Virus record (IMG/VR): IMGVR_UViG_2681813314_000020
Span: 1 to 11,315 of that record
DNA length: 11,315 bases
From: a virus
Taxonomy: Duplodnaviria; Heunggongvirae; Uroviricota; Caudoviricetes
Direction: 5' to 3' (one strand)
The position numbers were made by a program. This document shows, piece by piece, positions 9,001 to 11,315 of the stretch; position 1 is the stretch's first letter; each line of letters starts with the position of its first letter.

Positions 9001-11315
9001 GCGGCGTGTCCCATTTCGCCTGTGCCAGATACTGACCGTCAGCCGCGCTCACCTCCACCGTCAGGTGCTGCACTGCCGGTGGAATAACGCTGTTCAGGGA
9101 ACCTGACTGCGGCTCAAAGCTGGCCCCGTTATCCACAATGGCTTCTTTTTCCGGTACGTGCTGCACCGCCGTGATGGCAAAGGTGCCCTCCGTGTTTTCC
9201 CGGATGGAGACACAGCGGAACAGGCGACGACGCAGTGACGGCAGGGAGAGTCCCCATACACCGTATGTCTCCACACCATCAGGCAGGGTGCTGACCTGTA
9301 TCCGGTCCGGCGCGGGGTGTGCAGTGATGTCCACACTCACCGGCTTACCGCTGCCGTTAATCAGGTTCACCGTGGCGGCACCGGTCTCCGGAAGTGTCAC
9401 TTCACGGTCCAGCGTCAGGGTGCGGGTGGCAGCATCAATGGACAGGACACGTCCGCCGGTCATGGTCCCGGCATAGTCGTTATCACAGATTTCAATGATG
9501 TCACCGGGTGTGTGACGCAGCCCCTGTGACCCGAGCGTGAAATCCACCGTCTGCGTTTCCAGCTGTCCGGTCTTTATCACCCACAGCCCGGCACGGTGGG
9601 CCTGACCGCGACTGGTGCAGCCGAACGCATCCATCTTCAGCAGGTTGCGCCCGTAGCGCAGTATGGCTTCCGGGTCTTCCACCAGTTCCGTGGAGGTCTG
9701 CCAGCCGTTCTGCGGGTCGGTGTAATTCACCTCCACCGCCGTGTGCCGGTCCTTCAGGGCACTGAAGCTGTAGCGGAACCCCACGCCGTTATCATCCACC
9801 ACCACATCGCTGTTGGTGTACGGCCACACCACATCCGACGGGCGGTCCTGAACGAACGTCAGCGTCGGGCCGTTCCATACCGGCATACAGCGCATCGCCG
9901 AGCAGAAATCACTGAGAACGTCCCACGCCTTACGCTGTTGTGACAGGTACGCATTAAAGGTCATCCGCGGCTCTGTGCCCCCGAAACCATCCGGCACCGT
10001 CTGGTCGCAGTACTGCGCAATGGCATACAGCGCCCATTTGTCCACGTCTGCTGCCCCCAGACGTTTTCCCATGCCGTAGCGCGGGTGAGTCAGCATGTCC
10101 CACAGGCACCAGGCCGGGTTGTTGCTGTATGCCGGTTTCAGGCTGCCGTCCCAGATGCCGCTGTACGTGCGTTTTTCCGGGTCATAGTTTGACGGTACCT
10201 GGATGATGCGACCGCGGATATGGTAGTTCACCGTCATCTGCTGACCGCCAAACTGCTCCGCATCCACCTGCAGCCCCACAATCGCCGTGTTCGGGTAGCA
10301 CTGTTTCACATCGATGATTTCGGTGTATGACGACCAGAGCGTCTTATTCTGCAGCTGGTCCGGGGTGTTGTCCGCTGTCTCCCGGACCATCCGGATGTTA
10401 AAAGGACGGGGAGGCAGATTCTCCAGAATCACCGACGCCAGGTACTGTGAGGTGGTCTTGCCGTTAATGGTGACATCCTTTTCCGTCACCCAGTTACCGT
10501 TACGCTGCAACTGAATCAGCAGCCGGACAGAAGAGGGATTACGGTCACCCTTTGAGGTGGTCTCCACCAGTGACTGCACCCCGAAGGTAACCCGCAGGCG
10601 GTCAATGTTCGCGGACGTAATGGTGCGCGTCACCGGCTTTGCCTTCGTCACTTCCACGCCCAGTGCGGTTTCCGCCCCGGAGGACTCAAAGCCTTCCGGT
10701 GGTGTCTGCTCCTGCTCCCCGGCACGCCAGACCGCGGTCACACCGTGTATCACGGGATTACCGTCCGTGTCCGTCAGCGGGGTTTTGTTCACCAGGATAC
10801 TCTGCAGTCCCTTCACCGGGCCTTCTATCGGTCCCTCACCAATCGCATCAATCACACTCATCATCTGCGTGGATTTGAGATTGTCCTTCGCCTCGCGCGG
10901 TGTGTGCGCCTTGCCGCCACCTTTGCCCATTGTCTCACCCTTTACTGTGATAACTGTTACGCACAAAAACAACAGGCATCCCTGAGGATGCCTGTATCAT
11001 CACTGAATAAAACTTCTGAATATCTTCACATTTTCACAAACTGACTGTGGTGCTAATAATTTCTCTGCGTTAATGTTTTTTGTCGTGACATAAGAATAAT
11101 TCCTTACACTTAATCTTCGTAACGCTCCCGCAGTTCCTGTCCGCGATCACTGCGGGATTTTTTTATTCTTTTTACCCCTGCCGCCCGATAACCACGACCT
11201 TTCCGCCCCCGCCTTCATCACGGGTACTGATGTCCTGGGATATACGGCGGGAGCCAACCAGCATTTCCCCGTAAGGCACCGGCATCGGGTTACCCTGGGC
11301 AATCATGTTATCCAG

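Follow-up and report, generated by a model that had tools for sequence, protein, structure and literature searches.

A probable small RNA gene of the PasB/EcOnc22-24 family in the I-J tail gene spacer of a prophage

The stretch of DNA analysed here, hereafter the window, covers 11,315 nt of a Caudoviricetes virus (positions 1 to 11,315 of IMG/VR record IMGVR_UViG_2681813314_000020) and includes a junction at which the tail assembly gene I and the tail-tip gene J, both read on the minus strand, are separated by a spacer at 10931-11171. This spacer probably contains a self-contained small RNA (sRNA) gene of the PasB/EcOnc22-24 family, inserted as a moron directly after the stop codon of I and facing the late operon. 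The element is not new; judging by its sequence, the spacer appears to carry a divergent, unannotated member of a prophage sRNA family that has already been validated. A preliminary description of the window had raised the possibility of a moron-like small RNA, with a plus-strand transcript, and the unit found there is indeed homologous to PasB and to EcOnc22/23/24, which lie in the same spacer in the same orientation. The assignment is based on homology, synteny, orientation and the conservation of promoter, terminator and motifs.

Homology of the spacer to PasB and EcOnc22/23/24

PasB (pathogenicity-associated sRNA B) was described in prophage PP6 of enteropathogenic Escherichia coli (EPEC) O127:H6 E2348/69 (Pearl Mizrahi et al. 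2021, PMC8550237) and has been studied further in a preprint by Zhu, Shabalina and Storz (2026, 10.64898/2026.05.13.724894). [quoted passage not shown] Its published interval (NC_011601.1, 1466343-1466261, minus strand, 83 nt, between E2348C_1436 and 1437; PMC8550237 Table S6) corresponds in RefSeq to the 240-bp spacer between a tail assembly gene I ending at 1466255 and gpJ starting at 1466496, both on the plus strand. PasB is thus an anti-tail-strand RNA of the I-J spacer.

The E2348/69 and window spacers align end to end, the 3' end of PasB falling on window position 11164 and its reported 5' end at about 11083/84. The PasB Northern probe (AATCCCGCAGTGATCGCGGAGCT; PMC8550237 Table S6) matches the minus strand of the window at 11137-11159 in 20 of 23 positions, with 3 mismatches. 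A covariance model (CM) trained on six E2348-type sequences and zero window-type sequences, and searched with filters off, returned plus-strand positions 11067-11164 of the window with a score of 61.6 bits (E 5.4e-14), the match covering all of the model (positions 1-98 of 98) and the runner-up scoring 10 bits. When applied to 38 sources, the same model gave one match in each of the 30 module-bearing sources, that is, in every non-lambda I-J spacer searched except L086, and no match in the lambda-type loci. The Rfam part of the covariance search suggested in the preliminary description proved empty, the PasB-derived model supplying the full-length match. No Rfam family (AgvB RF02702, AsxR RF02703, Esr41 RF02676 and STnc100 RF02076 included) reached its gathering score anywhere in the window, and 10700-11315 yielded only chance-level hits at E up to 10; four homologous loci were likewise without a match, and the Rfam 15 scans matched no family that could represent PasB. 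Identity with PasA, PasC or PasD was considered and rejected, as their contexts differ (Q, holin/lysozyme and sialate esterase genes).

The window allele has in common with PasB its place in the I-J spacer, the anti-tail orientation, the promoter architecture, the terminator stem followed by U7, the 5' U-run, the ARN repeat and the motif UU(A/G)AUCUUC; it differs from PasB in a terminator loop longer by 5 nt and in a -10 element reading AATAAT rather than TATAAT. Over the RNA, 58 of 88 alignment columns are identical, a gap-tolerant alignment matches 66 of the 83 PasB positions, and the longest shared word is 25 nt.

A second body of data concerns EcOnc22 (Sp15), EcOnc23 (Sp14) and EcOnc24 (Sp11) of enterohaemorrhagic E. 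coli (EHEC) O157:H7 Sakai, which are mutual homologues (Tree et al. 2014, PMC4104026 Table S2). EcOnc22 runs at ~85 nt on Northern blots, is destabilised in delta-hfq and bears peaks in Hfq cross-linking and analysis of cDNAs (Hfq-CRAC) (PMC4104026). All three sets of EcOnc coordinates fall in I-J spacers of NC_002695.2, in the anti-tail orientation, and the published EcOnc22/23/24 probe (GGGAGAGAACGATGAAGATTAAC...) matches the tail-gene strand in 3/3 of these spacers (L122 1375-1397, L124 and L125). In the Sp15 spacer (L122), the sole EcOnc spacer entered in the CM search, the probe at 1375-1397 lies inside the CM match at 1337-1427. The presence of the probe in all three I-J spacers, and inside the CM match, therefore makes EcOnc22-24 and PasB alleles of one locus.

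Mapping the EcOnc peaks onto the current Sakai record calls for a correction, since PMC4104026 used an older record: an anchor in AgvB1 (L123 628-645, ~1.94 Mb) gives an offset of about +140 nt relative to NC_002695.2, and applying it moves the EcOnc Hfq peaks onto the RNA body. The uncorrected coordinates of Table S2, which would place EcOnc22 over the gene-strand hairpin described below, were rejected on the strength of the AgvB1 anchor and the probe position. The Sakai allele resembles that of the window in its position and orientation within the I-J spacer and in its AATAAT -10 element; it differs in sequence, with 73 identical positions between the 91-nt Sakai RNA and a 100-nt window segment and a longest shared word of 15 nt, and its promoter has another spacer sequence and a poorer -35 element.

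The link between PasB and EcOnc22-24 is not stated in the two PasB papers, as represented by Table S6 of PMC8550237, which gives EHEC homologues for PasA and PasD and none for PasB, and by the main text of the preprint (10.64898/2026.05.13.724894), from which the name 'EcOnc' is absent; the wider literature was not searched. Recognising the PasB locus of 2021 as the EcOnc22/23/24 locus of 2014 merges two experimental data sets. The preprint searched Escherichia and Shigella with a word size of 28 and reported PasB variants differing by few nucleotides. Because the longest word shared by the window allele and PasB is shorter than this, the window allele group probably lies outside that census, and the window-type and Sakai-type groups have probably both been missed by it.

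Promoter, terminator and conserved motifs of the predicted RNA

A predicted sigma-70-type promoter lies on the plus strand at 11033-11060, with the -35 element TTCACA at 11033-11038 and the -10 element AATAAT at 11055-11060 separated by 16 nt; it matches the consensus at 10 of 12 positions and is the candidate promoter pointed to in the preliminary description. The search gave two promoter-like sites, where shuffled sequences would lead one to expect 0.5. The hexamers are kept in most alleles (the -10 element is TATAAT in E2348/69 and, as in the window, AATAAT in Sakai), and the distance from the -10 element to a conserved GCGUUA is fixed at 6 nt in 32 of 32 modules. Transcription is predicted to start at a G at ~11067. 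The plus-strand unit running from promoter to terminator was correctly anticipated; its length was not, the CM and the alignments placing the window allele at 11067-11164, or ~98 nt rather than the ~105 nt claimed, with homologues reported at ~83-85 nt. Upstream of the -35 element, an AT-rich block (ATAAAAnTTCTGAATATCTTCACATT, 11007-11032, plus strand) is conserved and forms the left edge of the module shared between loci; it may act as an UP element or regulator site. Within 11020-11038, two direct copies of TTCACA, 2 nt apart (CTTCACATTTTCACA), lie in the conserved block before and at the -35 element, and a TGAA-N4-TTCA inverted repeat immediately precedes them; these repeats, too, may be a regulator site.

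The 3' end of the unit is an intrinsic terminator (11126-11164, plus strand), made of a 9-bp stem (11126-11134/11149-11157), a 14-nt loop and U7 at 11158-11164. The hairpin and its 7-T tract had been noted beforehand, and the fold (dG -15.7 kcal/mol, z -3.3) is more stable than any of 200 shuffles. The terminator ends 8 nt short of the I stop codon and is one-directional, because on the gene strand the A-run precedes the hairpin and no U-tract follows it. In its core 7-bp stem, CCCGCAG/CUGCGGG, 5 of the 7 pairs never vary across 24-27 alleles, the loop being variable, and the terminator is the sole structure predicted in the RNAalifold consensus.

In an alignment fitted to the model, a second stem-loop region appears near the 5' end (11072-11101, plus strand), where U6 at 11076-11081 stands opposite an A-rich run that doubles as an (ARN)3 repeat (AAGAAUAAU, 11092-11100). 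At least three ARN units occur at this position in 23 of 24 alleles, compared with 2.6% of shuffles. The 5' hairpin is 95% paired, four of its pairs are changed on both sides, and its covariation score of 0.158 compares with at most 0.043 in slid controls, which lends it moderate support; the loop left by the apical pairs would be too small in the window allele.

Between the two hairpins lies a conserved stretch predicted to be unpaired (11100-11118, plus strand), which comprises UUCCUU at 11100-11105, reading CUCCUU in most alleles, and UUAAUCUUC at 11110-11118, whose columns are invariant or near-invariant and fall outside any consensus helix. We regard this stretch as the putative seed. The CU-rich motif resembles the anti-Shine-Dalgarno sequence of 16S rRNA, which suggests pairing at ribosome-binding sites. 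The preprint on PasB places the seed just upstream of the terminator, in the same region as UUAAUCUUC (10.64898/2026.05.13.724894).

The same region bears on a competing proposal, a small-protein gene on the gene strand. The preliminary description had drawn attention to a 12-codon ORF with an AAGGAA Shine-Dalgarno sequence, and the ORF is present (MSRQKTLTQRNY, 11091-11053, minus strand), antisense to the 5' end of the sRNA, with its AAGGAA at a suitable spacing for translation from the late mRNA; as a conserved coding gene it did not hold up. Among homologous loci, the ORF occurs only in window-type alleles and is missing from the commonest allele (L075 type, 11 loci); the E2348-type and L047-type alleles have ORFs in other frames at its site, because the length of the A/T runs varies, and no conserved peptide emerges. 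The AAGGAA itself is explained as the complement of the conserved CU-rich motif of the sRNA. We therefore judge the ORF to be non-coding, and find its translation as a small protein scarcely credible.

The I-J junction, its spacer classes and mosaic alleles

To the right of the sRNA gene, the 3' end of I occupies 11175-11315 (minus strand; truncated by the end of the window), with its stop codon TAA at 11172-11174. The encoded C-terminus, ...GGGKVVVIGRQG, matches that of lambda I (...GGQVVVIGR) and of the RefSeq 'tail assembly protein' at homologous loci; the 47-aa fragment by itself gave no match in a family search. To the left, the J leader (10928-10961, minus strand) carries the ribosome-binding site GGGUGAG and the J ATG at 10930-10928, as indicated by the reading frame and by a match to NCBIfam lambda_TipJ from residue 1. 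The gene ends and the AT-rich spacer of ~240 bp are as previously described: 10931-11171 measures 241 bp at 39% GC, flanked by 59% on the J side and 61% on the I side. The accompanying statement that I and J abut in lambda was mistaken, as the lambda gap is 60 bp (NC_001416 15445-15504); the extra DNA in the window therefore amounts to ~165-180 bp rather than 240.

Morons are recognised as extra DNA between two genes that lie side by side in related phages, with a promoter and a terminator of its own and a deviant base composition. The window junction shows ~165-180 bp beyond the lambda gap, a promoter, a terminator, 39% GC against 59-61% in the flanks, and, in other loci, the alternative cargo sodC. 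The moron concept is due to Juhala et al. (2000, as cited in PMC4104026). The record of phage 1720a-02 (L001 3098-3250) places a 50-aa 'hypothetical protein' (AGR48338.1) on the tail-gene strand, spanning the sRNA gene and the terminal part of I; since no ORF is conserved across the sRNA gene, this gene call is probably spurious.

The search with the J N-terminus fetched 117 loci, and the I-J spacer was measured in the 88 in which both gene ends could be located. Spacers of 60 bp are of the lambda type and lack the sRNA; those of 234-245 bp are of the window type; those of 336-344 bp (~30 loci, e.g. L043) combine the same sRNA module with another J-proximal part; those of 848-851 bp contain sodC; and two single atypical loci, L086 and L073, measure 159 and 187 bp. 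The shared module extends from ~11007 to the I stop codon, the 240-bp and 340-bp classes being alignable rightwards from 11007 and unrelated to its left. Among the loci, 32 distinct modules form a mosaic of segment variants, around constants that comprise the promoter hexamers, the spacing from the -10 element to GCGUUA, a U5-9 run, at least three ARN units, (C/U)UCC(U/C)U, UU(A/G)AUCUUC and the terminator stem with U6-7; by sequence, at least five allele groups appear to recombine in this way.

A BLASTN comparison, which had been suggested as a check on conservation, came out in favour of the element being shared: the spacer is 92-97% identical in the 33 highest-ranking phage records, most of which belong to Stx1a- and Stx2c-converting phages, out of 149 records matched in all, the module recurs among spacer classes, and the spacer also occurs in >1000 E. 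coli chromosomes, unannotated in the matched records. The 139-bp window module was found in 1835 of 5426 complete E. coli genomes (34%), at up to 8 copies each and at ≥90% identity in ~900; it carries no annotation in the RefSeq records returned by the searches and has no Rfam match. Strains O111:H- 11128 and E110019 are examples with window-type alleles, at 95-99% identity. The polymorphism seen here goes well beyond that indicated by the published PasB census, and should be useful for building an Rfam family and for choosing alleles in target studies. A scan of a genome collection returned mostly J-bearing contigs that are 66-97% identical and are assigned to Streptomyces, Clostridiales, Bacillota, Pseudomonas, Bradyrhizobium and other taxa (L005, L007, L009, L011-L021, L023, L024, L026, L030-L033 and L035-L040), several of them ~48.4-48.5 kb long; these look like lambda or E. 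coli prophage contamination and are uninformative on host range.

Two spacer classes carry cargo of other kinds. In the 340-bp class (L043 1159-1500), the unrelated J-proximal part spans ~190 nt and contains a hairpin, AAACCCCGGTATC-AGCA-GATACCGGGGTTT, ~100-135 nt upstream of J, which is flanked by an A-run and a T-run, is hence terminator-like on both strands, and has no match in Rfam; this part could encode a second small transcript. The sodC class (L044 650-1500; also L045, L048, L056, L058, L061, L081 and L093) contains a gene for a Cu,Zn superoxide dismutase of 175 aa (Pfam Sod_Cu, E 3.9e-32) in the anti-tail orientation, like the sRNA. The inserted DNA takes the place of the sRNA promoter as far as roughly the start site; the sRNA body and terminator persist (CM scores of 44-52 bits), the body being situated downstream of sodC's own terminator hairpin, and it might be made by read-through or processing. 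The finding of sodC in place of the sRNA promoter at the same junction identifies the I-J junction as a moron insertion site.

A further hairpin, on the gene strand, appears from its distribution to be a separate and older feature of the junction rather than part of the sRNA module. It occupies 10962-10995 (minus strand), consists of a perfect 10-bp stem at 10972-10995 closed by a tetraloop and followed by UGUUUUUGUG at 10971-10962, and was found as the preliminary description had placed it, with a T-tract ahead of the J ribosome-binding site; its fold (dG -18.3 kcal/mol, z -4.6) was equalled in stability by 0 of 200 shuffles, and its U-tract ends 31 nt before the J start codon. The hairpin is kept in the Sakai and E2348 alleles with one compensatory change, from U-A to C-G, and its place is taken by a different hairpin in lambda and in the 340-bp class. 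The lambda gap hairpin (L004 965-990; NC_001416 ~15464-15489) reads CCGCC-ugcg-GGCGG on the gene strand, followed by UUUUGUCAUUU (UUUUGUC), lies just upstream of the J ribosome-binding site and is conserved in lambda-type loci. The lambda and window spacers are therefore alike in having a GC-rich gene-strand hairpin and U-tract just upstream of the J ribosome-binding site, and they differ in that the lambda spacer is 60 bp long, lacks the sRNA module and any CM match, and has a hairpin of unrelated sequence. We know of no function described for the lambda I-J hairpin. The window hairpin would most likely serve as an intrinsic terminator of, or an insulator against, transcription lacking Q antitermination, or as a stabiliser of mRNA 3' ends. 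A small transcript ending at this hairpin was considered and set aside, as no minus-strand promoter was found in 10700-11315; the window stops inside I, so that promoters farther upstream are possible.

In the remainder of the window, J lies in pieces between 1454 and 10930, an N-terminal part (model positions 1-714) being followed by fragments covering 532-1055, 625-1055 and 532-1163. The fragments are separated by two identical IS3-family elements at 3414-4570 and 5953-7109 (ORFs of 272 and 100 aa), and runs of N occur among them at 3360-3380, 5917-5919 and 8776-8798; IS insertion may have rearranged the prophage, or else the assembly joined or masked repeats. Downstream of J, as with lambda lom, is a gene for an Ail/Lom-family outer-membrane protein (787-1386, minus strand; Pfam Ail_Lom, E 1.6e-117). 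A 141-aa ORF at 11-436 gave no match in a family search.

Proposed mode of action, alternatives and known systems

If the spacer is an sRNA gene of this family, host sigma-70 RNA polymerase would, in a lysogen, start at ~11067 from TTCACA-16-AATAAT, and transcription would end at the CCCGCAG/CUGCGGG hairpin and U7 (~11164), giving an RNA of ~85-100 nt. The predicted layout is that of an Hfq-dependent base-pairing sRNA, with a 5' U-run, (ARN)3, a CU-rich/UUAAUCUUC stretch left unpaired, and a U-tailed terminator. Such an RNA would bind Hfq, its 3' intrinsic terminator and poly-U likely forming the Hfq-binding module, and would pair in trans with host and prophage mRNAs through the conserved stretch, probably at or near ribosome-binding sites. 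For the window allele, where exactly the 5' end lies, which bases form the seed and how regulation works are inferred, as is expression, the latter because the promoter, terminator and motifs are intact.

Several points weigh against this interpretation. Expression, size, Hfq dependence and RIL-seq partners come from the homologous E2348 and Sakai alleles only, and the degree of column identity between the window RNA and E2348 PasB means that the targets of the latter are not transferable to the former. The reported sizes of the homologues, 83 nt for PasB and ~85 nt for EcOnc22, fall short of the ~98 nt predicted from the -10 element, which points either to processing at the 5' end or to imprecision in the published estimate; an RNA as short as reported would lack the U-run half of the 5' hairpin. 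The covariation of that hairpin was computed on an alignment fitted to, and hence leaning toward, the model, and the minimum-free-energy fold of the window RNA uses another, allele-specific long-range helix. This 5'-3' helix, GCGUUAAUG with CGUAACGC, was rejected as its 3' partner is specific to the window allele and RNAalifold does not return it. In the terminator, neither RNAalifold nor the model-fitted alignment reveals compensatory changes, hence no covariation; with a stem that hardly varies, this result speaks neither for nor against the structure. Finally, the prophage appears damaged or mis-assembled (J fragments, IS copies and N runs), and the element could be a passenger.

A further possibility is that the spacer is inert, a silent remnant in a decaying prophage with a weak or repressed promoter, whose hairpins merely punctuate the late operon. 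The AATAAT -10 element in place of TATAAT and the break-up of the J region by IS3-family copies and N runs are in keeping with such a state, as is the sodC class, where the loss of the promoter shows that RNA bodies can persist without one of their own. However, detection of the Sakai allele by Northern blot and Hfq-CRAC, in spite of an identical AATAAT and a poorer -35 element, argues against a dead promoter in the window; moreover, the window promoter scores 10/12, and the module is intact, without any disabling change relative to alleles found in hundreds of genomes. An inert spacer is therefore very unlikely in our estimation.

Alternatively, the RNA might act in cis, as an antisense regulator or superinfection-exclusion RNA pairing with the I-J part of the late mRNA of the same or related phages, and, through cleavage between I and J or head-on transcriptional interference, control the tail-tip gene J or exclude phages rather than regulate host genes. 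The sRNA faces the late operon head-on and, between I and J, is antisense to it over its full length; a polymorphic mosaic body held between a conserved promoter and terminator is what allele-specific self-recognition would be expected to produce; and there is a precedent in STnc6030 of the Salmonella prophage BTP1, which is antisense to structural genes and excludes superinfecting BTP1 (PMC7067206). On the other hand, the end of the sRNA lies >120 nt upstream of the J ribosome-binding site without overlapping any coding sequence, so that it is not apparent how translation would be affected; RIL-seq links PasB, through Hfq, to dozens of trans partners; and a perfect cis duplex would not necessitate conservation of UUAAUCUUC and the ARN repeat. 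Chiefly on account of the distance from J and the lack of coding overlap, we rate a cis role as unlikely.

A bolder version, which strikes us as improbable, treats the I-J junction as a modular socket in which the resident sRNA works chiefly in cis, each allele targeting the late transcript of phages with the matching spacer. Were this true, allele-specific exclusion or tuning of J would explain a mosaic body with a fixed promoter and terminator, and in the sodC class the RNA body would derive from a virulence-gene transcript, at its 3' end, instead of being transcribed from a promoter of its own. The trans-acting sRNA gene remains the reading that we favour. As a discovery it is modest, the family having been validated in EPEC and EHEC and the element being of the known PasB/EcOnc22-24 kind.

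The AgvB and AsxR sRNAs of EHEC (Rfam RF02702 and RF02703) resemble the window sRNA in being short, Hfq-binding prophage RNAs encoded in morons, with a conserved 3' and a variable 5' part; they differ in occupying the PR' moron site downstream of Q, in their length of 51-60 nt and in their unrelated sequence (PMC4104026). Identity with either was rejected on the grounds of site, sequence and the lack of an Rfam match. STnc6030 of BTP1 (Owen et al. 2020, PMC7067206) is likewise a lysogen-expressed RNA antisense to phage structural genes; it differs in exceeding 700 nt, in overlapping coding sequence and in its demonstrated role in superinfection exclusion, and no homology to it is expected. The E. 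coli O157:H7 prophage morons sodC-F1 and sodC-F2 (D'Orazio et al. 2008, PMC2569942), whose own loci were not part of the comparison, are akin to the sodC-class loci in their Cu,Zn superoxide dismutase cargo; that cargo is protein-coding, and no sodC is present in the window, where the corresponding junction instead holds the predicted sRNA gene with its promoter in place.

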